IMG/VR virus record: IMGVR_UViG_3300017917_002765
Location: 32,001 to 96,000 of that record
Length of the DNA stretch: 64,000 nt
Origin: a virus
Direction: 5' to 3' (one strand)
How positions within the stretch are numbered: position 1 is the first letter of the stretch; each line of letters opens with the position of its first letter. A model generated the notes under the pieces. The model had not been told where the DNA came from. It saw only the letters and a program-made list of their open reading frames with translations, and did no database searches. The position numbers and the translations under genes were made by a program. Shown piece after piece: positions 303-26,832 of the stretch.

Positions 303-334
303 AAAAAAGCTTGGTCATTTCTGGCCAAGCTTTT
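303..334 (-). terminator. Attenuator terminator 1 (before the Phe/Glu/Asp tRNA operon)
   Basis: AAAAGCTTGGCCA-GAAA-TGACCAAGC-TTTTTT hairpin plus U-tract between leader ORF and first tRNA. Confidence 0.88.
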
Positions 335-357
335 CATCTATTTATTAAACTTTGAGT

Positions 358-450
358 TTACTTTTTAGACAATAGTTGACCACCTAGGCTTTTATCAGCC
401 TCGGCTGCGAATTCAAACGCAAAATCAAATATGTTAGCAAAAGTTCTCAT
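358..450 (-). CDS. Leader peptide 1, MRTFANIFDFAFEFAAEADKSLGGQLLSKK (Phe/Asp/Glu/Ala sensor)
   Basis: 30-codon ORF after AAAAACA; codons 8-19 are only F/D/E/A; TGGTCAA (376-382) can pair with terminator 5' arm TTGGCCA. Confidence 0.88.
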   Translation of the reverse strand: MRTFANIFDFAFEFAAEADKSLGGQLLSKK

Positions 451-496
451 TGTTTTTGTTTTTAATTAAATATCTACTTGTTTTAAAAAGTTATTG

Positions 497-527
497 CAAA
501 TGTACTAAGTATTTTTGAATTTGTCAA
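497..527 (-). promoter_or_regulatory. Bacteroidota sigma70-type promoter for leader 1
   Basis: TTGACA-N17-TACATTTG (-7 element TAnnTTTG). Confidence 0.75.
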
Positions 528-540
528 GTTTTTTGTAAAA

Positions 541-4233: not shown

Positions 4234-4309
4234 ATTTCGGAAGGCGTACTCATTAGAGATACTTCCGTCAGTTACGTTGCTTTCGCAAGAGGCTTTACTG
4301 AGCACCATG

Positions 4310-4395
4310 TACCGAGAGTGGGACTCGAACCCACACGACCTTTTAGGGTCACAGCATTTTAAGTGCTGCGTGTCTACCTGTTCCACCATCTCGGC
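4310..4395 (-). tRNA. tRNA-Leu(TAA)
   Basis: CAGCA-CTTAAAA-TGCTG; type II variable arm. Confidence 0.95.
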
Positions 4396-4404
4396 ATTAC
4401 GTTA

Positions 4405-4436
4405 CAAAGGTACAAATAATTATCTTATTTTGCAAA
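4405..4436 (-). promoter_or_regulatory. Internal promoter upstream of the three Leu tRNAs
   Basis: TTTGCA...TACCTTTG between tRNA-Val and tRNA-Leu(TAA). Confidence 0.55.
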
Positions 4437-4455
4437 TCCTATGCAACTTTTTTTG

Positions 4456-4540
4456 TAGGTCCACCCAGATTCGAACTGGGATTATACTTCTCGTCTCCAC
4501 TTTGTAAGAGTGGGATGTTTAGCCATTACACCATGGACCT
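4456..4540 (-). tRNA. tRNA-Val(TAC) with enlarged variable region
   Basis: Acceptor AGGTCCA/TGGACCT; CCACT-CTTACAA-AGTGG; 16-nt variable region. Confidence 0.88.
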
Positions 4541-4623: not shown

Positions 4624-4654
4624 AAAAAAAGCCTATCTTTTTAGGATAGGCTTT
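4624..4654 (-). terminator. Attenuator terminator 2 (before the Cys/Val/Leu tRNA operon)
   Basis: AAAGCCTATC-CTAAAAA-GATAGGC-TTTTTTT. Confidence 0.9.
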
Positions 4655-4682
4655 CTAGTATTTTCAGTTTATGATTACTTAC

Positions 4683-4757
4683 TTAACAAGCAAAGCCCAC
4701 CCAGTCTGCTACTAGCAAACATAAGACAAGGACTAAATTTGTTAATGACGTTTTCAT
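4683..4757 (-). CDS. Leader peptide 2, MKTSLTNLVLVLCLLVADWVGFAC (Leu/Val/Cys sensor)
   Basis: Codons 8-16 are TTA GTC CTT GTC TTA TGT TTG CTA GTA; GGGTGGGCTTT (4692-4702) pairs with terminator 5' arm AAAGCCTATCC. Confidence 0.9.
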   Translation of the reverse strand: MKTSLTNLVLVLCLLVADWVGFAC

Positions 4758-4786
4758 TGTTTTTTGTCGTTTTTAATAAATATACA

Positions 4787-4817
4787 CAAAGGTACAAAAA
4801 GTTTTTCAATTTGTCAA
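4787..4817 (-). promoter_or_regulatory. Bacteroidota sigma70-type promoter for leader 2
   Basis: TTGACA-N17-TACCTTTG. Confidence 0.75.
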
Positions 4818-4857
4818 GTTTTTTAAAAGAAAAAATGTATTTATAGATAAAAAGTGT

Positions 4858-16583: not shown

Positions 16584-16597
16584 GGTTAAAAATTTAG

Positions 16598-16670
16598 TAG
16601 TCCCAGAGGGATTCGAACCCCCATAAAGAGCTTAGAAGGCTCTTGTCCTAATCCATTGAACGATGGGACC
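16598..16670 (-). tRNA. tRNA-Arg(TCT), solitary copy
   Basis: AGAGC-CTTCTAA-GCTCT; near-identical to 22201-22271. Confidence 0.95.
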
Positions 16671-16678
16671 GTAAAAAA

Positions 16679-17023
16679 TTAACCTAATGGTGCTTCACCT
16701 TTATCTCCTCGAAGCTTGTTTATCTGTTTAATGATTTCATCATATGAAACACTATTAGCTTTTTTCTTTAAATATTCGGTTATATCACTTTTGTTCTCTT
16801 CTAACCCATCTAAAAGTTTTTTTGCAGTGTACATACTTGTTAATTGACCTAACTCATATGTTTCATCTTCAGTCATAATTGTACCAGCTAGCAAAATCAT
16901 AAAATTACCAGATTGGCTGATACAAAAATCTTTTCTTTCCATTCCTTCATCAACCAAAACCTTACCCATTTCTAGAAACATAGCACTAAGCTCTAAACGT
17001 CTATTTATATTTTCTTTTTCCAT
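16679..17023 (-). CDS. Hypothetical protein
   Basis: ORF with TATATTTG promoter element upstream. Confidence 0.65.
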   Translation of the reverse strand: MEKENINRRLELSAMFLEMGKVLVDEGMERKDFCISQSGNFMILLAGTIMTEDETYELGQLTSMYTAKKLLDGLEENKSDITEYLKKKANSVSYDEIIKQINKLRGDKGEAPLG

Positions 17024-17060
17024 TAAGCAAATATACTACTATTTTTAATAATATGCAAGT

Positions 17061-17990
17061 TTACTTCACAATTTCTGTTACAAAACCAGTAATAAAAAAT
17101 GGTTTAACATCTTGCCATTTGGTGATATCATTCGACAACACTGGTTTACCGCCATCTGGGTTTACAGCAATCGTAACGTGAGGAATAGCGTTTTTAGATG
17201 GATACCCTTCAACTTGTACTGCCATAGCCATATCAGACAGACCAACTTTTGTCACCTTCAAAATGACTTCCTTGCCAATGTCAGTCTTATCCTTTAACTC
17301 ACCCATTGTTATTGTCATGTGGTGGGCATAAGTCTTCCAACCATCTGGAATTTCCAATACAAATCGCTCAAGCAATTTATTGTGTGAAGCCTTATCCAGA
17401 AGAACACAAGAATACAGTACGTTTGATTTATTATACATGTCTTTAGAATCCAAAACACTTTTAAGGGTAAGAGGTCCTTGTGCTGTGTGACTAGCAATCA
17501 TAGCTTCAATCCTTTCTAACGGAACGCCATGAGTGTTTCTAGCAGCCAATTGTGTAGCCTCAAGTCCAGCGGTACCAACATCAACAAATTTTATGTTGTT
17601 ATCAGCAAAACCCATTTCAAGAGCCGCTACAACATATGCTTTTGGTTCGTTTTGCTTAATGTTTGTGTTGTCAACAATAACTGGTGTAATCCCAGCTTTC
17701 ATCGAAGTAATTGCATCTTTTAAATTTTGTGAGTGAACCTTGCTTAGAGCACTAAAATCACCAGTAGCAATCATCTTAGCAAAAAACTCAAGATAATCAC
17801 CAGATTTCTCAATAACATCGTCTGTTGAATGAATTTTACCTTGACCTACAAGTGATTTAGCCTTGGTTGATTTTCCAGCTCCAGGTATCCCACGCATAAC
17901 AATAAGCTCTTGGTTAGGTCTGGTTACAGACACGCCCAATGAGTTTTTTTCTGAACCCTCACGCAGTATTTCTTTGATTTTTTCTTTCAT
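17061..17990 (-). CDS. Polynucleotide kinase (AAA_33) fused to 2H cyclic phosphodiesterase (RNA end healing)
   Basis: MRGIPGAGKST; IVDNTN; RNTHGVP; HHMTI and PHVTI. Confidence 0.82.
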   Translation of the reverse strand: MKEKIKEILREGSEKNSLGVSVTRPNQELIVMRGIPGAGKSTKAKSLVGQGKIHSTDDVIEKSGDYLEFFAKMIATGDFSALSKVHSQNLKDAITSMKAGITPVIVDNTNIKQNEPKAYVVAALEMGFADNNIKFVDVGTAGLEATQLAARNTHGVPLERIEAMIASHTAQGPLTLKSVLDSKDMYNKSNVLYSCVLLDKASHNKLLERFVLEIPDGWKTYAHHMTITMGELKDKTDIGKEVILKVTKVGLSDMAMAVQVEGYPSKNAIPHVTIAVNPDGGKPVLSNDITKWQDVKPFFITGFVTEIVK

Positions 17991-20516: not shown

Positions 20517-22042
20517 TAGATTAAATTAAGTTTCCTTCTAAGCCTTTCTTTTAACTCTTCTTTAGATAACTCATTAAATTCTTTTTCAAGACCTAATACT
20601 TTTGCAATATCGTTTGGTGTTACACGTGAACCATGAGAATGGCTTCCCATTCCTTCATCAATAGTCTTCATTTTCTGATTAACATAATCAATAAGATAAT
20701 TTGTAACCTTTGAAACCTCCTCAAATACCTTAATCATATTTTTTTCATCAGCACCCCATAAGACGGTATAATTTAAGGATGTTGTTTTTAAATCAAAACC
20801 AAAAGCATACATAAACATCCAAGCACTTAATTCTGCTTGTTGTTCAACAACATCTCTAGAATTTTTTCCAATGAAGAAAGAACCAGAAGCTCCACCTTTG
20901 GAAGACAGGTATGACTGATGTAACAATTCATGAGTTATTTCGTGAGCAAGTGTTTTGGTTAAACCAACATCATTCCCTTCATTTTTCAATATCTTTATCA
21001 ATCCATTTGCACTAACACCTCTAGAACCACCTAAGTCATCAACCAATTCTGTTTTAATACCATTATCATTACAAAATTCTAATAAGGATTTATATATTGG
21101 TCTTACATCATCAGAAATCATATTTTCTTCAAACCATTTAATGTTTTTTGAAGCTTCTTCTGCGGACTTAATATAATCTGTTTTCCCTTCTATTTGTGTT
21201 GTATCAGAAACATCATAAACCGCAACTAACTTAAATTTATTAGCCTGTACGCTACCTTTTGTTATTGCGTCCAACTTAAATTTTTCATTTGGCGTTAAAT
21301 CGTCCCTTTTTATTTTTCCTACCTTTTTAAAAAAGTCTTGTTTTTCTTTTTCAACTTGTTCTTTTGATTTATATAGTTTCTTACCTTCAGGTGCCCAAAT
21401 TGCAATAGGTTTTGCATTAGGATTAACATTTCTATTATATTTGTCTAACCAATCTAGTTTCCCATAAACCTTTTTGGCATTTGGTTTTTGTAAATAAATC
21501 AAAAGCGTATTAGCTAATGAGAATCCTCTTCCTTGTGCGGCTCTAATATCAATTAGCTTTCTCATTATATCCTTAAATTGCTCATCATCTTTGATATTTA
21601 CAAGCATATTTCTAAAGTTATTTAACTTCGTTTTAATCGCTTCTTCATCTTCCTTGGTGAAATTTAATTCTGGGATTTGAGTTAAGTCTTCTGTTTCAAT
21701 TGTTTGAATTAATCTGTCAATGTCGGTGATTAATTTTTTAGCATCTTCACCACTAACACTTAAATAATCGTTTAGATGGTTTATTGCGGATTTTATATCA
21801 TCTATAGTAGTTTTGTTTTCAAACCAAAAATAAGTTTTAATTAATTTATTATATTTTCCGCCATTATTACCAAGAATAGATTTTCCAGCATCACTAAATA
21901 TTAAAGCATTTTCTTCTTCTGTACTAGCTTTTAACATAATAATTGGAATTTCTCTTCCGTCTTTTGTTTTAAATAAGCTTTTTACTAATTTAAAATCTTC
22001 AAAAATTAACTTTTTCATATTTTTTTTTATAATAAATATCAC
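20516..22042 (-). CDS. ArdC-like ssDNA-binding domain plus zincin metallopeptidase (polyvalent protein)
   Basis: FSLANTLLIYLQKPNA..W..YNR.V; VYDVSDT; TLAHEITHELL..EQQAE. Confidence 0.78.
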   Translation of the reverse strand: MIFIIKKNMKKLIFEDFKLVKSLFKTKDGREIPIIMLKASTEEENALIFSDAGKSILGNNGGKYNKLIKTYFWFENKTTIDDIKSAINHLNDYLSVSGEDAKKLITDIDRLIQTIETEDLTQIPELNFTKEDEEAIKTKLNNFRNMLVNIKDDEQFKDIMRKLIDIRAAQGRGFSLANTLLIYLQKPNAKKVYGKLDWLDKYNRNVNPNAKPIAIWAPEGKKLYKSKEQVEKEKQDFFKKVGKIKRDDLTPNEKFKLDAITKGSVQANKFKLVAVYDVSDTTQIEGKTDYIKSAEEASKNIKWFEENMISDDVRPIYKSLLEFCNDNGIKTELVDDLGGSRGVSANGLIKILKNEGNDVGLTKTLAHEITHELLHQSYLSSKGGASGSFFIGKNSRDVVEQQAELSAWMFMYAFGFDLKTTSLNYTVLWGADEKNMIKVFEEVSKVTNYLIDYVNQKMKTIDEGMGSHSHGSRVTPNDIAKVLGLEKEFNELSKEELKERLRRKLNLI

Positions 22043-22105
22043 AATTTATTTAGTTAATTCATTTATGTATGCAATTAAATGTGGAAACATATTGGTTATT
22101 TAAAG

Positions 22106-22194
22106 CGGAGAATTGGTTAATCGAAAACCATGCGGTTTTTGGCCGCACCCATTGTTTAGCAAACAAGTCTGGGACCCTGCCCAGTTAATTCTCC
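22106..22194 (-). tRNA. tRNA-Ser(GCT)
   Basis: Acceptor GGAGAAT/ATTCTCC; loop TTGCTAA; long variable arm. Confidence 0.88.
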
Positions 22195-22200
22195 ATATTG

Positions 22201-22271
22201 TAGTCCCAGAGGGACTCGAACCCCCATAAAGAGCTTAGAAGGCTCTTGTCCTTCCGTTGAACGATGGGACT
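22201..22271 (-). tRNA. tRNA-Arg(TCT)
   Basis: AGAGC-CTTCTAA-GCTCT. Confidence 0.95.
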
Positions 22272-22278
22272 ATTATAG

Positions 22279-22358
22279 TACAGACGGAGGGACTCGAACC
22301 CCCATTTACAACTCCATTTACGGTTACTAAGTTCGTAGCTTAGCTCGGTTACGTCTGC
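22279..22358 (-). tRNA. Non-canonical tRNA-Arg(ACG): no D-arm, 23-nt variable region
   Basis: Acceptor GCAGACG/CGTCTGT; 8-nt linker; CTAAG-CTACGAA-CTTAG; GGGGG-TTCGAGT-CCCTC. Confidence 0.7.
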
Positions 22359-22363
22359 ATTTG

Positions 22364-22433
22364 TTGCGTGGAACGGAGCCGAACCGTCTTACTCTGCCTT
22401 ATGAGAGCTGAGCCTTTTCCAATAAGCCACGCA
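22364..22433 (-). tRNA. tRNA(CAT) Met/Ile2 with reduced D-arm
   Basis: Acceptor TGCGTGG/CCACGCA; loop CTCATAA; T-loop TTCGGCT. Confidence 0.72.
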
Positions 22434-22438
22434 ATGTG

Positions 22439-22509
22439 CTCAGATGTAGGGAATCGAACCCTATTCCTACGAGTTAACAGCTCGTTGCTCGCCATTGAGC
22501 TTCATCTGA
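22439..22509 (-). tRNA. tRNA-Asn(GTT)
   Basis: ACGAG-CTGTTAA-CTCGT; canonical. Confidence 0.93.
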
Positions 22510-22515
22510 ATGTTG

Positions 22516-22600
22516 CGGATTGGATAGGATTCGAACCTATGTGAACCTTACGGCCTTCGTGTTAACAGCACGCTGCTCTGACCAACTGAGCTACCAATCC
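22516..22600 (-). tRNA. tRNA-Asn(GTT) with long variable arm
   Basis: CGTG-CTGTTAA-CACG; variable hairpin GGCC-GTAA-GGTT. Confidence 0.88.
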
Positions 22601-22608
22601 ATATTTTG

Positions 22609-22684
22609 TCTTGAGGGTGGGACTCGAACCCACACGTGCGAAGATATAAGCTTCCCAGTCTGACCAGTTGACTATTACCTCAAG
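22609..22684 (-). tRNA. tRNA-Ile(TAT)
   Basis: Acceptor CTTGAGG/CCTCAAG; GAAG-CTTATAT-CTTC. Confidence 0.8.
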
Positions 22685-22693
22685 AATTTAAAG

Positions 22694-22777
22694 TTGTGAG
22701 GGTGGGAGTCGAACCCACCTATAGAAATTAATCTCCAGTGTATCAGACTGGTGCCCAAACCGCTAGACCACCTCACA
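22694..22777 (-). tRNA. tRNA-Ile(GAT) with enlarged variable region
   Basis: CCAGT-CTGATAC-ACTGG; 16-nt variable region. Confidence 0.87.
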
Positions 22778-22890
22778 ATAATTTATTTTAATTTCCTAAA
22801 CCATAAACCGCCCCAGTTTATTATTATATTCACTAGCATCCATCTCTGTGGAGACCAAACAATTGTTTGGTGACGGTTAAAGTTTAAAAG

Positions 22891-22963
22891 GGTGCTATAG
22901 GAGTTTCGAAATCCCGACCTCTGGTTCCACAAACCAGCGCTCTGCCTCTGAGCTAATAGCACC
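22891..22963 (-). tRNA. tRNA-His(GTG)
   Basis: G-1; CTGGT-TTGTGGA-ACCAG. Confidence 0.9.
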
Positions 22964-23054
22964 ATGTTTGAAAGTGTAATTTACTGCACTTTTCATGTTA
23001 AATAAGCTTTTTATATCAGTTATTTAGTCTGATAGTGTAATTTATTACACTTTG

Positions 23055-23128
23055 GGTGTAGGACGATAGTCGAACTCGCAACTACAAGGCTCACAACCTA
23101 GCGTTATACCGTTAAATCTACCTACACC
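23055..23128 (-). tRNA. tRNA-His(GTG), divergent second copy
   Basis: G-1; CTAGG-TTGTGAG-CCTTG; mismatches in the arms. Confidence 0.8.
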
Positions 23129-23205
23129 ATATAAGACCACCCCGTAAGTGGTCAGGACAAACACGTCTTTGTCTGGACAGCGATATTTCCCTTTGGGAAT
23201 ACTAG

Positions 23206-23292
23206 AGGAAGGTGGAGGACCCGACCCCCTGACGGCTCATCACCGCCACCCTAATTTTCAAGACTAGTTTTGCTCCATGCAAGGCACCTTCC
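23206..23292 (-). tRNA. tRNA-Ser(TGA), probable 8/4 fold
   Basis: 8-bp acceptor GGAAGGTG/CACCTTCC; 4-bp T-stem; loop CTTGAAA; long variable arm. Confidence 0.78.
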
Positions 23293-23297
23293 ATTAG

Positions 23298-23380
23298 CAC
23301 ACTCGGTAGAAGTCGAATCTACAACCATTTAATCCTAAGAACAGATTTGGAGTCTGTTGGTCACGCCCATGAGCGAGTGT
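23298..23380 (-). tRNA. Non-canonical tRNA-Trp(CCA)
   Basis: ACAGA-CTCCAAA-TCTGT; small D-arm; 18-nt variable region. Confidence 0.75.
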
Positions 23381-23385
23381 ATATG

Positions 23386-23456
23386 CACACCTGCTTCGAC
23401 TTGAACGAAGAACGTCCGTTTTGGAGACGGAAATTTTACCATTAAACTACAGATGT
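23386..23456 (-). tRNA. tRNA-Trp(CCA)
   Basis: TCCGT-CTCCAAA-ACGGA; canonical size. Confidence 0.9.
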
Positions 23457-23463
23457 ATAATAA

Positions 23464-23482
23464 CCAATATGTCAAATAACGT
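23464..23482 (-). promoter_or_regulatory. boxA-like antitermination element
   Basis: ACGTTATTTGACATATTGG between the attenuator and the first tRNA; related ACGTTCTTT at 29330-29338 and 30248-30256. Confidence 0.45.
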
Positions 23483-23511
23483 CTGACCAATATTTTATTT
23501 GGTGGTCAACC

Positions 23512-23553
23512 AAAAATAAAAAACCCGACCTAGATTTTTATCTGAGTCGGGTT
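23512..23553 (-). terminator. Attenuator terminator 3 (before the 13-tRNA operon)
   Basis: AACCCGACTCAGAT-AAAA-ATCTAGGTCGGG-TTTTTTATTTTT. Confidence 0.9.
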
Positions 23554-23576
23554 CTTCTTTTTTATTTGTTTGTTTC

Positions 23577-23678
23577 TTAAAAATCACATAAGAAACTTAC
23601 AGACATAGCCGACTCAAATGGATTGCTATTGCGTCTCCACATGCTAATCGAATTAATATGTATGTTTATGTTTCTCAT
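23577..23678 (-). CDS. Leader peptide 3, MRNINIHINSISMWRRNSNPFESAMSVSFLCDF (Trp/Ser/His/Ile/Asn/Met/Arg sensor)
   Basis: First 19 codons use only the 7 amino acids of the downstream tRNAs; TTTGAGTCGG (23609-23618) pairs with terminator 5' arm CCGACTCAGA. Confidence 0.93.
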   Translation of the reverse strand: MRNINIHINSISMWRRNSNPFESAMSVSFLCDF

Positions 23679-23742
23679 TGTTTTTGTTTTGTGGGTTTCC
23701 CCTGTTTTTTATTAAATATGTGCTTTTTCTTAAAAGTTAATG

Positions 23743-23773
23743 CAAATGTACTAACTATTTTTCAATTTGTCAA
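23743..23773 (-). promoter_or_regulatory. Bacteroidota sigma70-type promoter for leader 3
   Basis: TTGACA-N17-TACATTTG. Confidence 0.75.
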
Positions 23774-23791
23774 GTTTTTTGCAAAATATTT

Positions 23792-25072
23792 TTATGAAAC
23801 GTCAAATTCGTCCAAATATACTGTAACTTCTGGGTGATTAGTTTCAAGATAAGAAACAACTTGCCTAGGGTCCTTGGTTAATGGAATATCCGTTCCGAAT
23901 TTTTGATTGAATTCTTCTACTGTACGTATTTTTTGTTGTTCGCCATTTTTATAAATGATATATATACCATATATGGTATTAGTTACGGCACCCATATATT
24001 CTGGTCTAGAAACCAATATTCTATCTACTCCATCGAATAATGATTGTTCTTCCTCATATGGGTTTATACCATACTGTACTTCTCTAGAAGCTTTTTCATA
24101 GTCTTCACCATCATACTCATTAATTTGATTTTTAATCCAATAGTTCAATCCTTTCCAATATATTGCATCAAAACTATCTTTATGCTCTTCACCATCAAAA
24201 ACTACTGTAACATAAATTTTATTCCACTTATGTTTTGAAATTAAATCTTCAACTATTGACATGGTATCGTCAAAATCAAAATTAGACTCAATAGTGTCTA
24301 TTTCATAATCAATTGAACCATCTGGACCATTATGATAATGTTTATCTTCTATTTTTGTCATATCATTATCATAATCTAAGGTTACTAACATATCTGAAAC
24401 ACCAGTTGATGTTCCTTCATCCATTTTCATCATTGAAGTCTCATCTATATCATATTTAACACCATCATCATATACTTCACCTAAACTATTCGGGTCTAAC
24501 TTGGTTAAATACATATTTAATTCATAGGTACCAGAATCCATTCTATATATTTGTATTGCTAAAAATCTATTTTTGGTTGGCTGACCTTTGTGGTTAAGGT
24601 GTATATTATCTTTTTTATTTTCACCATATTTAACACCACCAAACGTAAATTTATTAAAACCATTTTCAGGGATTTCAAAATAATTGTTTTCAACATATTT
24701 TTGAGCTTCATCTAAAGCTGATGCTAATGTTTTATGATATACCTCGTAATCTTTTGATTTTAAAACAGAACCAACACTTCTTGATTCTTCATCAATACCT
24801 AAACCAAAACTAGCTACTGTTGTGTCAGCATCATAAAAATCAGAAACAATGTATTTATCAGAGCCAATTTGGTTTATGTGTTTAGCAACACCACCTTCTT
24901 CGTCAGAAATTCTTTTGGCTTCAGCTTTTGCTTCTTCAAAAGACATTCCATAGCTTTCATCTAATCTTTTTATTTTGTTAAAATTTTTTGAAAATGATTC
25001 AACAATTGCTTTTTCTCTATCAGCCAATATAGCTTTCTTTTTAGCTTCAGTTAAAAATTCTTTCTTTTTCAT
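23792..25072 (-). CDS. Hypothetical multidomain protein, probably virion-internal
   Basis: Acidic; IQIYRMDSGTYELNMY module; TATTTAT upstream. Confidence 0.65.
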   Translation of the reverse strand: MKKKEFLTEAKKKAILADREKAIVESFSKNFNKIKRLDESYGMSFEEAKAEAKRISDEEGGVAKHINQIGSDKYIVSDFYDADTTVASFGLGIDEESRSVGSVLKSKDYEVYHKTLASALDEAQKYVENNYFEIPENGFNKFTFGGVKYGENKKDNIHLNHKGQPTKNRFLAIQIYRMDSGTYELNMYLTKLDPNSLGEVYDDGVKYDIDETSMMKMDEGTSTGVSDMLVTLDYDNDMTKIEDKHYHNGPDGSIDYEIDTIESNFDFDDTMSIVEDLISKHKWNKIYVTVVFDGEEHKDSFDAIYWKGLNYWIKNQINEYDGEDYEKASREVQYGINPYEEEQSLFDGVDRILVSRPEYMGAVTNTIYGIYIIYKNGEQQKIRTVEEFNQKFGTDIPLTKDPRQVVSYLETNHPEVTVYLDEFDVS

Positions 25073-25213
25073 AGCAGTATTTTAAGATAAATATCTAAAA
25101 CCCCAATAAAAGTTATGTGTTCTTTCTTTTCACAAAACTTCTTTTAACATTAACTGTCTTTCTTTTGTTTGTGCTGCCTTCACGAACAGTTATTGTTCTT
25201 TTGTGTGTTGCCA

Positions 25214-25594
25214 TTAGTAATCTTCGTCTTCAAATTCATCGTTATCATTATCATCGTAATATCCATCTTCTTCATCATCAAGAAGTTCTTCTTCCTCATC
25301 TTCTACAAGCCCTTCAAGATGTTCCACATGAATGAATATACCAAAACCTTCATTAAATGTCTTGTTGATTGCTTTGTATTCTTCGTTAGATATTTCTTTG
25401 AAGTCAAGCCTTGATAAATAATCATCACCGTCAGCGAATTCTAATGAATAATTTGTTAGTGGATAATCAAATGACCATTTGATACTTTGTGCTATCGATT
25501 CTAAGTATTCTACTTCTTTATCGGTCATTGCTTTGAAGCCAGATATCTCTACATCGTTAATCTGGTCGTTAAAAGTAACTAGATATTTTGCCAT
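25214..25594 (-). CDS. Hypothetical protein with acidic tail
   Basis: ORF; D/E-rich C-terminus. Confidence 0.7.
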   Translation of the reverse strand: MAKYLVTFNDQINDVEISGFKAMTDKEVEYLESIAQSIKWSFDYPLTNYSLEFADGDDYLSRLDFKEISNEEYKAINKTFNEGFGIFIHVEHLEGLVEDEEEELLDDEEDGYYDDNDNDEFEDEDY

Positions 25595-25632
25595 ATGACA
25601 TAAATATATGGTATCACAAAAAAGAATAAATA

Positions 25633-25827
25633 CTACAATAATTTTTTGAAATTGTCCGTCTCCATTTGTTGAATCGCTTTACCAACTTCTGGACCACTAA
25701 CAGTTAGTCTAAACTTTTGAAAAGCTGTCATTAGCTTTTCATCAATTCCCTCAGCCTTAGCAAATGCAAGCAACTTATCTGGTAATACACCATCATTTTG
25801 CTCCGCTCTTTTAATGCGTATTCCATG
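25633..25827 (-). pseudogene. Start-less remnant resembling the C-terminus of a CCA-adding enzyme
   Basis: Open frame ...AFQKFRLTVSGPEVGKAIQQMETDNFKKLL* directly after the purA stop. Confidence 0.35.
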
Positions 25828-26832
25828 TTAAATGTCGTATGGTGTTGTACTAAATGTTATTCTTTTTATTGTCGAACAAGCTGTGGATATTTTATCAGCA
25901 ATGTAAGTTTGAAATTCTTCACTAGTTTTGAAAACTAAAATCTCATGGTTTTCATACATCTTAAATTCACCAACTTGTTCTAAAATGTCCAATTTATTTA
26001 TTACTAAATCCGTAACACCATTAATTGTTATCGCTTTAATAATGTCATCTAAATTGAACCAATTGACTTGCCGTTTTCTACCAGTTGTCGCACCAAACTC
26101 TTGGCCAAATTCTCTAATTTTTTCAAAAACTTCTGAAGGCTCCTCAAATTTTTTGGCACCAACATATGTTCTATATGCTTTGGCTACGCCATATATATTT
26201 CTAATTGTTTGGGGCGGGAATCCATTCAATATTGTTGAACCAACAGTGCAATGTGAACTAGTCACATACGGATAATCACCCCAATCAATGTCCAATTCAA
26301 ACCCCTGAGCGCCTTCAAATAGAATCTTAACATTTTCATTTGAAACATGAAGGTCATACAAATCAAATATAAATGATTTCAAACTATCTTCACTTTCAGC
26401 TCTCTTCCCAATTCTAGCATACTTGTCACGATAAGCTGGACCTATACCTTGTTTTGTGGTTCCTATTCTTGAATCTTTCCCGTCTTCTTCCAAGTGTTCA
26501 TCAGTTATTATATGAACTCTCTTATCAATCATTAAATTAGATTTTACATCAAACCCAAGCTGTTCTAAGTCTTCAATTTCTTTGAACAGCTTATCAACGT
26601 TTACAACACAACCAAGACCAATTATAGACTTAATACCATATAACACACCACATGGTATAAAATGTGTAACCACTTTTTGTCCATTGTGATAAATAGTATG
26701 TCCAGCGTTTCCACCACCATTATATCTAATAACATGCGTGAATTCTCCTTTGCTCAATAAAGAATGTGTTACTTTACCTTTGCCAGTATCACCAGCTTGT
26801 AAGTCAACAACTACATCAGCGTATTTAACCAT
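25828..26832 (-). CDS. purA: Adenylosuccinate synthetase (short form)
   Basis: GDTGKGK; GGGNAGHT; GTTKQGIGPAY; EGAQG; YPYVTSS; EFGATTGRKR. Confidence 0.96.
   Translation of the reverse strand: MVKYADVVVDLQAGDTGKGKVTHSLLSKGEFTHVIRYNGGGNAGHTIYHNGQKVVTHFIPCGVLYGIKSIIGLGCVVNVDKLFKEIEDLEQLGFDVKSNLMIDKRVHIITDEHLEEDGKDSRIGTTKQGIGPAYRDKYARIGKRAESEDSLKSFIFDLYDLHVSNENVKILFEGAQGFELDIDWGDYPYVTSSHCTVGSTILNGFPPQTIRNIYGVAKAYRTYVGAKKFEEPSEVFEKIREFGQEFGATTGRKRQVNWFNLDDIIKAITINGVTDLVINKLDILEQVGEFKMYENHEILVFKTSEEFQTYIADKISTACSTIKRITFSTTPYDI

Follow-up and report, generated by a model that had tools for sequence, protein, structure and literature searches.

Why should a block of phage tRNA genes be preceded by a short open reading frame (ORF) whose opening codons call only for amino acids those tRNAs would carry? 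The question is raised by a 64,000-nt stretch of viral DNA (the window; positions 32,001-96,000 of IMGVR_UViG_3300017917_002765, the full record being 136,575 bp at 31% GC), in which a promoter, a 33-codon ORF (leader 3), an intrinsic terminator, and an array of 13 tRNA or tRNA-like genes follow one another. All features of this unit are on the minus strand and are given in window coordinates. From its sequence, and from folding models, the element is quite probably a ribosome-mediated (leader-peptide) attenuator giving feedback control of the phage tRNA supply.

The promoter (23743..23776) consists of the motif AACTTGACAAATTGAAAAA (23776-23758), with a -33 TTGACA inside it at 23773-23768, a 17 nt spacing, and a -7 box TACATTTG (23750-23743) of the TAnnTTTG type, which we take to be the Bacteroidota consensus. 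The promoter 19-mer is found in three exact copies in the window, with a fourth elsewhere in the record, and each copy precedes a leader and a tRNA operon; in shuffled sequence the mean is 0.63 matches at up to three mismatches. The leader ORF, MRNINIHINSISMWRRNSNPFESAMSVSFLCDF (23577..23678), starts with an ATG 65 nt downstream of the -7 box and has 33 codons and a TAA stop. No Shine-Dalgarno (SD) sequence precedes it, and the A fraction at positions -20 to -1 is 0.70, against 0.50 across 88 phage genes. An A-rich, SD-less start resembles those of the phage's own genes, which are A-rich at their starts and have an SD-like core in only 5 of 88 cases; this, together with promoters of the TTG/TAnnTTTG type, presumably indicates a Bacteroidota host.

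Codons 1-19 (23622..23678) form the putative regulatory run: ATG AGA AAC ATA AAC ATA CAT ATT AAT TCG ATT AGC ATG TGG AGA CGC AAT AGC AAT, exactly as listed in the original prediction when read on the minus strand from 23678. Only M, R, N, I, H, S, and W are used. The next codons, 20-24, hold region 2 (ATTTGAGTCGG, 23609..23619), the candidate 5' strand of an antiterminator, which is predicted to pair with 23550-23540. The latter segment overlaps the 5' arm of the terminator (23518..23557; 5' arm 23557-23540 with core AACCCGAC, 3' arm 23535-23518 with GTCGGGTT and the U tract). The terminator hairpin is predicted at -21.3 kcal/mol, is followed by T6, and ends at 23518, 62 nt before the first tRNA.

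The composition of the run was compared with two backgrounds, the block boundaries being chosen post hoc. By the amino acid frequencies of 110 long ORFs in the record (the proteome), the seven-residue set has a frequency of 0.306, and the probability that all 18 codons after the initial Met fall within it is 5.5e-10. Among all 663 ATG-initiated ORFs of 20-60 codons in the six frames, a background that absorbs the AT-rich bias, the set frequency is 0.364 and the probability 1.3e-8; leader 3 ranks first of the 663, with the runner-up at 3.8e-5. The 19-codon run is also the longest in-set run in six frames of 136.6 kb, the next having 13 codons. The amino acid bias that had drawn attention to this ORF is accordingly beyond chance by either background. 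The same prediction held that every anticodon class of the operon is represented among the codons. This is true (10 of 10), but it is not significant given the peptide and phage codon usage (P=0.24), and leader 0, described below, covers only six of its eight anticodons; a gate resolving individual isoacceptors is accordingly not supported.

Leader 3 is not alone. Four units in the record share one layout: the exact promoter, a leader ORF, a terminator, and a block of tRNA genes. Leader 0 (peptide MKTTTTYTGKQYPQGKQG...) precedes tRNAs for Pro, Gln, Tyr, Thr, Gly (two), and Lys (three). Leader 1 (303..530, minus strand; ORF MRTFANIFDFAFEFAAEADKSLGGQLLSKK, including ...FDFAFEFAAEAD...), with the same promoter and a terminator, precedes Phe, Glu, and Asp tRNAs (290-57), and Ala just past the window edge. 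Leader 2 (4624..4820, minus strand; ORF MKTSLTNLVLVLCLLVADWVGFAC, including ...LVLVLCLLV...), again with the same promoter and a terminator, precedes Cys, Val, and three Leu tRNAs (4621-4011). The four sets, PQYTGK, FEDA, CVL, and WSHINMR, partition all 20 amino acids. When the first 18 codons after Met of each leader were scored against each set, leaders 0 to 3 had 17, 14, 10, and 18 of 18 in their own sets and 0-3 of 18 in any other; best-block probabilities were 3.3e-9, 1.6e-8, 4.7e-8, and 5.5e-10 against the leaders' own sets, and at least 6e-3 against the others. For its own set, each of the four ranks first among the 663 small ORFs.

Related sequences were collected in two ways. Pattern scans of IMG/VR with two promoter motifs returned 35 and 49 stretches. 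Across the retrieved DNA there are 49 distinct promoter matches, from which 29 leaders with a terminator were extracted (the record plus related IMG/VR contigs): seven of type 0, three of type 1, nine of type 2, and ten of type 3, numbered as the leaders above. Three candidates with no T run within 120 nt were dropped, two of them non-leaders (G001 38162 and L066) and one a type-1 leader cut by the end of its locus (L072); an ORF beginning MHRWHH..., from the type-3 collection, is not a leader. Promoter matches without a leader head ordinary genes, or else a tRNA-Met unit with ~270-480 nt of unannotated RNA and no leader. Five loci at first taken for leaderless counter-examples (G004, L090, and L106, then L118 and L122) all have, further along, another promoter together with a type-3 leader.

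A collection that avoids ascertainment through the promoter was obtained from the neighboring gene for a kinase plus cyclic-phosphodiesterase (kinase-CPD) "healing" protein (17061-17990 in the window; Pfam AAA_33 and tRNA_lig_CPD), by which 25 loci were retrieved. This protein-anchored search replaced one by tRNA-Cys pattern for operons in relatives, which returned 0 stretches, because the tRNA sequences of the relatives are too diverged; the wide differences among tRNA genes also mean that the family is not a set of near-identical genomes. At the kinase-CPD-anchored loci, all eight type-3 tRNA clusters with upstream DNA have a type-3 leader. Loss of the bias in homologues that keep the tRNAs would have told against the original prediction; the composition is instead kept in at least 29 leaders, and at eight of eight type-3 clusters.

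How the runs vary is informative as well. There are 20 distinct type-3 leader sequences in all. Over codons 4-18 of 12 of these, 15 of 16 alternative residues remain in the set, against a neutral expectation of 0.41 derived from single-nucleotide neighbors (P=1.7e-5; L086, which has a one-codon insertion, was left out). In type 0, composition is kept while the order changes, as in TYTGKQYPQGKQG, TYQPKQTQGGKP, TYQPKQYTQGKP, and TYQTKQYQPKGGTP; TYQTKQYQPKGG is another example of altered order. The type-2 core is invariant, and its alternative residues (two in the set, five outside) give no significant result; type 1 has too few sequences for a residue-replacement test.

Unrelated leaders that follow the same rule are found in more distant phages, L131-L133, whose anchor protein matches in its CPD domain alone, at 45-49% identity: MFVSFENRNNERENN... 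(FENRNNERENN) precedes Asn and Glu tRNAs, and MNNVSLHLSSLCLSWSS... (SLHLSSLCLSWSS) precedes four Leu, one His, and two Ser tRNAs. Locus L014 (G005) has at 4243-4500 the same -33 motif, the ORF MKTYRHNFTELGQADTAWSNPCGRC with 17 different amino acids, and two terminator-like hairpins; its tRNAs (Thr, Arg, Glu, Gly, Ile, Val) start ~1.6 kb downstream, and it is no clean fit to the rule. DNA of the window itself occurs in pond, lake, and freshwater metagenomes, mostly as small shares, with the whole stretch in one that is perhaps its source; a search for RNA runs containing it listed none, a result that counts neither for nor against expression. A Megablast search of cultured phage records with 21000-26000 found no match.

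Could these leaders switch transcription? RNA folding was done with ViennaRNA with a masked ribosome footprint; all sequence behind the ribosome was masked too, which is an assumption. When the full leader is folded with no ribosome, each of the four in the record has the terminator in its minimum-energy structure. For the transcript as it would be before the 3' arm is made, and with a masked ribosome, the terminator 5' arm pairs with region 2, just after the run. In this model the region-2 pairing holds while the A site is in the run, and is lost 2-4 codons past it. In leader 3, the number of arm bases paired is 13 of 18 up to codon 15, 12 at codon 16, nine at codon 17, and none at codon 21, so that the modeled break falls at codon 21, compared to a run end at codon 19. 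The antiterminator itself had been proposed as a 10-bp pairing (TTTGAGTCGG/CCGACTCAGA); it is present, and extends to 11 bp in the fold. Its stabilization is -9.3 kcal/mol, equaled by none of 200 shuffles, and the duplex of region 2 with its own terminator arm (-17.4 kcal/mol) is equaled with none of 19 arms from other leader types.

Across the 29 leaders, antiterminator stabilization is -5.8 to -16 kcal/mol, against about -3 in shuffles, and in 24 of them no more than two of 200 shuffles match it. The break codon, by modeled A site, is between two before and six after the end of the run in 26 of 29, and shifts to 26-27 in two type-0 leaders whose runs reach codons 23-25. All 29 have a terminator, the T run having itself been a selection criterion.

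The strongest structural evidence for the proposed switch is covariation of three segments, region 2 and both arms of the terminator. Versions in type 3 include GAGTCGG/CCGACTC/GTCGGG, GTCAAGG/CCTTGAC/TCAAGG, GAATCAGG/CCTGATTC/GAATCAGG, and GTCGGGT/ACCCGAC/GTCGGGT; in type 0, region 2 and the arm are found as GACTAGG/CCTAGTC, GACTGGG/CCCAGT, and ATCGGGT/ACCCGAT. In all ten type-3 leaders tested, the leader's own arm pairs better with region 2 than nearly any arm of another type (0-2 of 19 equal it). In the type-2 alignment the support is modest: the antiterminator is 75% paired, versus 35-53% with the partner slid, and the terminator 81%, versus 24-58%.

Variation within the leaders is of the kind expected for coding sequence. 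The ratio of nonsynonymous to synonymous polymorphism (pN/pS), computed for the 10 type-3 leaders out of 20 that have both 33 codons and an MSV tail, is 0.30 over the run and 0.17 over the tail, values to which RNA structure could contribute and which come from pairs that are not independent; variation at Val27, Asp32, Arg16, and Ser18 is purely synonymous. The anatomy of the units, their composition statistics, their conservation and covariation, and this coding-like substitution pattern are properties of the DNA as it stands. The codons in the runs are rarer than phage synonymous usage in all 29 leaders, with P<0.05 in 21, the codon usage of relatives being approximated by that of this record. 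Those preferred include TCG, CGC, CCG, ACG, GGC, and GTC, and GC content at third positions is ~0.33 in runs compared to 0.20 in genes; the ten aligned type-3 leaders all have TCG at codon 10 and AGA-CGN at codons 15-16. The preference fits a sensor tuned by slow, wobble-read codons, the alternative being constraints of RNA structure.

The type-3 tail, (E/G/Q)SAMSVSFFDD(F/I/L/Y) (codons 20-33; 23577-23621 in the window), is conserved as a peptide, with synonymous changes, and might serve to hold the ribosome by arrest or pausing. All 10 aligned leaders, including a subfamily with a different tail, have the same Met codon after region 2 (G.TATG). Two other hairpins lie in or near the leader 3 transcript. 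One, GGGGAAACCC (23702-23690), is in the 5' untranslated region upstream of leader 3 and is kept in subfamily-A type-3 leaders, and a similar one, GGGGTAACCC, is found in one type-2 leader (L069). The other is inside a segment, TTGGTTGRYCACCAARTAAAATATTGRYC...GTTATTTGAMATRTTGG, that leaders 3 (23510-23458) and 0 (record 28470-28420) have in common between terminator and first tRNA; the arms of its hairpin are swapped between copies (TGACCA..TGGTCA versus TGGTCA..TGACC). RNA processing or a further layer of control are possible roles for the segment.

Taken as an attenuator, leader 3 would work as follows. Transcription would start at the promoter, which is strong and, as we presume, Bacteroidota-like, and a ribosome would load on the A-rich, SD-less leader and translate the 33-codon ORF, the first 19 codons of which need only seven amino acids. 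If any aminoacyl-tRNA in this set were scarce, the ribosome would stall inside the run, leaving region 2 (23619-23609) free to pair with the terminator 5' arm; with the antiterminator formed, RNA polymerase would read through into the 13 tRNA genes. With fast decoding, the ribosome would be on region 2 before the terminator was complete, the hairpin would form, and transcription would stop at 23518. Since the output is the same tRNA set that is being tested, this would be a negative-feedback supply controller. That the ORF is translated, that ribosomes stall on it, that the two structures compete kinetically, and which way the response runs are all inferred. Of the seven-amino-acid OR gate first proposed, the attenuator and its several inputs are supported by the sister units, at least 29 homologues, covariation, and the ribosome model, but not the isoacceptor resolution or the protector.

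A number of results weigh against this reading. In the equilibrium model, the probability of the terminator is 0.94-0.96 for leaders 1 and 3 at every ribosome position, so antitermination would have to be kinetic in these; kinetic switching is accepted for the trp attenuator. The pre-terminator fold also forms the antiterminator with no ribosome. No clear anti-antiterminator (1:2 pairing) was found in leader 3: the protector hairpin of the original prediction does exist, but it is weak (-4.9 to -5.8 kcal/mol) and no better than shuffles, 29% of which are as stable. A longer fold would sequester region 2 in the untranslated leader (-29.6 kcal/mol, a single prediction). A weak protector, together with an antiterminator that forms without a ribosome, suggests that the design may be translation-dependent termination rather than the classical four-segment scheme. 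The stop codons of leaders 0 and 3 are ~30 nt past region 2, where a waiting ribosome would not cover it. Trp, Met, and His have one codon each in leader 3, and sensitivity to those three would be low. Five antiterminators are not clearly above shuffles: L073, L099, L076, and L105, together with L074, in which this is an artefact of block definition. In the type-2 alignment the percentage paired is reached by 18 of 500 shuffles, a modest signal of covariation. The leader sequences are related, and their counts are not independent events. Finally, in three relatives (G003/L121, L109, and L117) a type-3 leader has no tRNA in the ~3.5 kb that follow; what comes after it is a small ORF, then a new promoter and the kinase-CPD gene, with RNA-ligase-like genes in two.

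Several of these points would suit a more general device, sensing translation or its coupling to transcription, or else mainly charging (that is, amino acid supply), with codon composition secondary. The leader of such a device would signal no more than whether ribosomes are keeping behind RNA polymerase, which they might not do under, for instance, global translation stress, ribosome shortage, or amino acid starvation. As the antiterminator forms without a ribosome, any failure of translation would likewise lead to readthrough; what a stall senses is aminoacyl-tRNA, the level of which is a matter of amino acids and synthetases in addition to tRNA; and in the three relatives just mentioned the same leader precedes tRNA-repair genes, not tRNAs. 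The tRNA array of Anabaena, too, responds to general translational stress (PMC8421152). Operon-specific composition would, however, be superfluous in a general sensor, and here the division of the 20 amino acids among the four leaders is exactly that among their operons; replacements in relatives, too, remain in the set. A device of this sort is an improbable account of the leaders, if the best of the alternatives.

A second alternative is that the small ORFs encode functional micro-proteins or arrest peptides, with the terminator ending an upstream unit and the tRNA match incidental. The conserved type-3 tail SAMSVSFFDD, with its synonymous changes and pN/pS of 0.17, would be expected of such peptides; the type-2 core LVLVLCLLV resembles a membrane segment; and there is no terminator between the promoter and the upstream 426-aa gene (stop at 23792). 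Against this, each of four dissimilar peptides fits the tRNAs encoded downstream of it, residue order is shuffled in type-0 leaders while composition is kept, and region 2, which is inside the ORF, covaries with the terminator, all of which makes this explanation very unlikely. A chance or compositional artefact of AT-rich DNA, for which it can be said that AAT, ATA, ATT, and AGA are common in sequence of 31% GC, that the set frequency reaches 0.364 in small, mostly non-coding ORFs, and that the ORF, the cut at codon 19, and the block boundaries were chosen after the fact, is made untenable by the genome-wide and comparative controls: the first rank among 663 ORFs and the longest run in six frames of the record, three further leaders with different and partly GC-richer sets, and a pattern kept in at least 29 leaders from diverged phages with widely differing tRNA sequences.

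The array that the attenuator would control (22105..23456, minus strand; ARAGORN and Infernal/Rfam) starts with Trp-CCA (23385-23456), a CCA gene with a long variable arm (23297-23384), and Ser-TGA (23205-23292), the last two found only by the tRNA-Sec model, below threshold, and by relaxed ARAGORN. Then come two copies of His-GTG (23054-23127 and 22890-22962), Ile-GAT (22693-22777), Ile-TAT (22612-22681; 28.6 bits against an Rfam cut-off of 29), two copies of Asn-GTT (22515-22600 and 22438-22509), a CAT tRNA (22363-22434; 23 bits over 22364-22433, below the Rfam cut-off), Arg-ACG (22278-22358; ACG by Infernal alignment, but Leu-TAG by relaxed ARAGORN), Arg-TCT (22200-22271), and Ser-GCT (22105-22194; called only by relaxed ARAGORN). 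Seven of these are found by default ARAGORN and eight of 13 reach the Rfam RF00005 gathering score, the other five (Ile-UAU, CAU, long-arm CCA, Ser-UGA, and Ser-GCU) being sub-threshold or found by relaxed ARAGORN only. An operon of 13 tRNAs, as originally described, therefore holds as a count of tRNA or tRNA-like genes, but only eight pass Rfam and one anticodon is disputed.

Long variable arms are found in this phage on many tRNAs whose anticodons are for Asn, Ile, Trp (CCA), Val, Lys, and Thr rather than Ser, Leu, or Tyr. The sites are 22515-22600, 22693-22777, 23297-23384, and 4455-4540 in the window, and 27203-27293 and 27870-27955 in the record. They often adjoin a tRNA of normal length with the same anticodon; the arm of the long Asn tRNA has 4 bp closed by a GUAA loop. 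The relative G002 also has long-arm tRNAs, for Trp (89 nt), Gln (89 nt), Ile (85 nt), and Asn (86 nt).

Other genes for tRNAs and for their upkeep are found nearby. A promoter of the same class (CTTGACAAAT-N13-GTACCTTTG) heads a tRNA-Met unit at 29385-28974. The ~300 nt that follow this promoter have no leader-type ORF and no Rfam match; after them come tRNA-Met(CAT) (28974-29046) and a tRNA-like gene (28862-28930), and the unit recurs in G001, G002, G003, and L080. Because of a C1-U72 mismatch this tRNA-Met may be an initiator, and the supply of an initiator would escape a sensor that works by stalling. Downstream of the kinase-CPD gene (region 16597-17040) are a conserved protein of ~118 aa and tRNA-Arg(TCT), with RNA-ligase-like genes in relatives; in G003, L109, and L117 a type-3 leader is ~440-510 nt upstream of the kinase-CPD gene, and the interval holds no tRNA array. 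In G002 (L029), L090/L068, L106, and G003 there is a conserved ORF of 59-65 aa (M.E..L..LG.EK...L.KDF....Y.K.A...GY.GELRF...), and from its placement between type-3 terminator and tRNAs it would be co-regulated. The phage also encodes a transfer-messenger RNA (tmRNA; 29883-30241, Rfam 75.1 bits, tag GNDFVVSENFLDEAACSFAGELAVA), adding to its own equipment for translation rescue.

How does this compare to known systems? Leader peptides that respond to more than one amino acid are familiar from the ilvGMEDA leader (Ile/Val/Leu) and thrL (Thr/Ile), and trpL, hisL, leuL, and pheL (PMC3082878) are further attenuators of enterobacterial amino acid operons. Like the phage leaders, amino acid operon attenuators have a short promoter-proximal ORF with clustered regulatory codons, and an intrinsic terminator that cannot form together with the antiterminator, the 5' strand of the latter being masked once a ribosome is past those codons; one leader may also read several amino acids. 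They differ in that the phage units would regulate tRNAs rather than biosynthetic enzymes, so that the molecule sensed is the product; in that phage leaders would sense up to seven amino acids each; and in that these are phage-encoded, have no SD (presumably the Bacteroidota type), and have no clear 1:2 protector. Searches with the Rfam leader families (Trp, His, Thr, Leu, and similar) and T-box gave no hit at gathering score in the whole window, and none at E<=1 in 21900-23900; by these searches, neither the T-box nor any of the curated leader families is homologous to it.

Leader-peptide attenuation of a translation component by way of its own codons is known from the pheM leader of pheST (phenylalanyl-tRNA synthetase), but pheM controls a synthetase protein, reads a single amino acid, and is cellular. 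T-box riboswitches sense tRNA status through competition of terminator and antiterminator upstream of translation-related genes; unlike the leaders here, they bind uncharged tRNA directly, with no ribosome or ORF. A Phe-rich leader at E. coli pheV or pheU, considered as a possible precedent, is not upstream of either gene in the K-12 sequence. In open-access full texts and bioRxiv no description of leader-peptide control of tRNA genes was found, though subscription papers could be missed. To our knowledge, then, this would be attenuator regulation of a known kind applied to a new target class, tRNA genes.

The nearest published biology found is the trn operon of Anabaena sp. PCC 7120, a long tRNA array that is silent and is induced under translational stress, and with which the rtcB gene for an RNA-repair ligase is co-regulated (PMC8421152, PMC10272220). 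The likeness is in an accessory tRNA array combined with repair genes, the phage family having kinase-CPD and ligase genes beside its arrays. The difference is in the control: in Anabaena the repressor TrcR binds direct repeats and acts on the promoter, with no codon-specific sensing, and the main text of PMC8421152 nowhere uses the words leader, attenuat-, or terminator.

A further step is tentative, and on balance doubtful: that the four attenuators are a per-operon tRNA homeostat doubling as a counter-defence sensor. Phages that repair tRNA are expected to face tRNA-cleaving defences, which makes supply of tRNA on demand plausible. A host anticodon nuclease, or tRNA depletion, would cause stalling on the matching leader, and only the affected set would be transcribed; in some relatives the sensor would also precede the genes for tRNA healing (kinase-CPD) and ligase. 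The tRNAs for Asn, Ile, Trp, Lys, Thr, and Val that have long variable arms would serve as spares resistant to the nuclease.

If the leaders are attenuators as proposed, they would be the most direct feedback on tRNA supply imaginable: the ribosome tests decoding, and the output is the tRNA tested. Large phages could carry a full tRNA set without a constitutive cost. This would bear on the debate over why phages carry tRNAs, whether to match codon usage or to escape tRNA-targeting defences, and would provide compact, orthogonal, codon-specific sensors of the tRNA pool for synthetic biology. Leaders of this family occur widely among phage contigs from freshwater, and the same rule is obeyed in a second group at greater distance. 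Probably, the phage makes its leader-gated tRNAs only when ribosomes run short of them.

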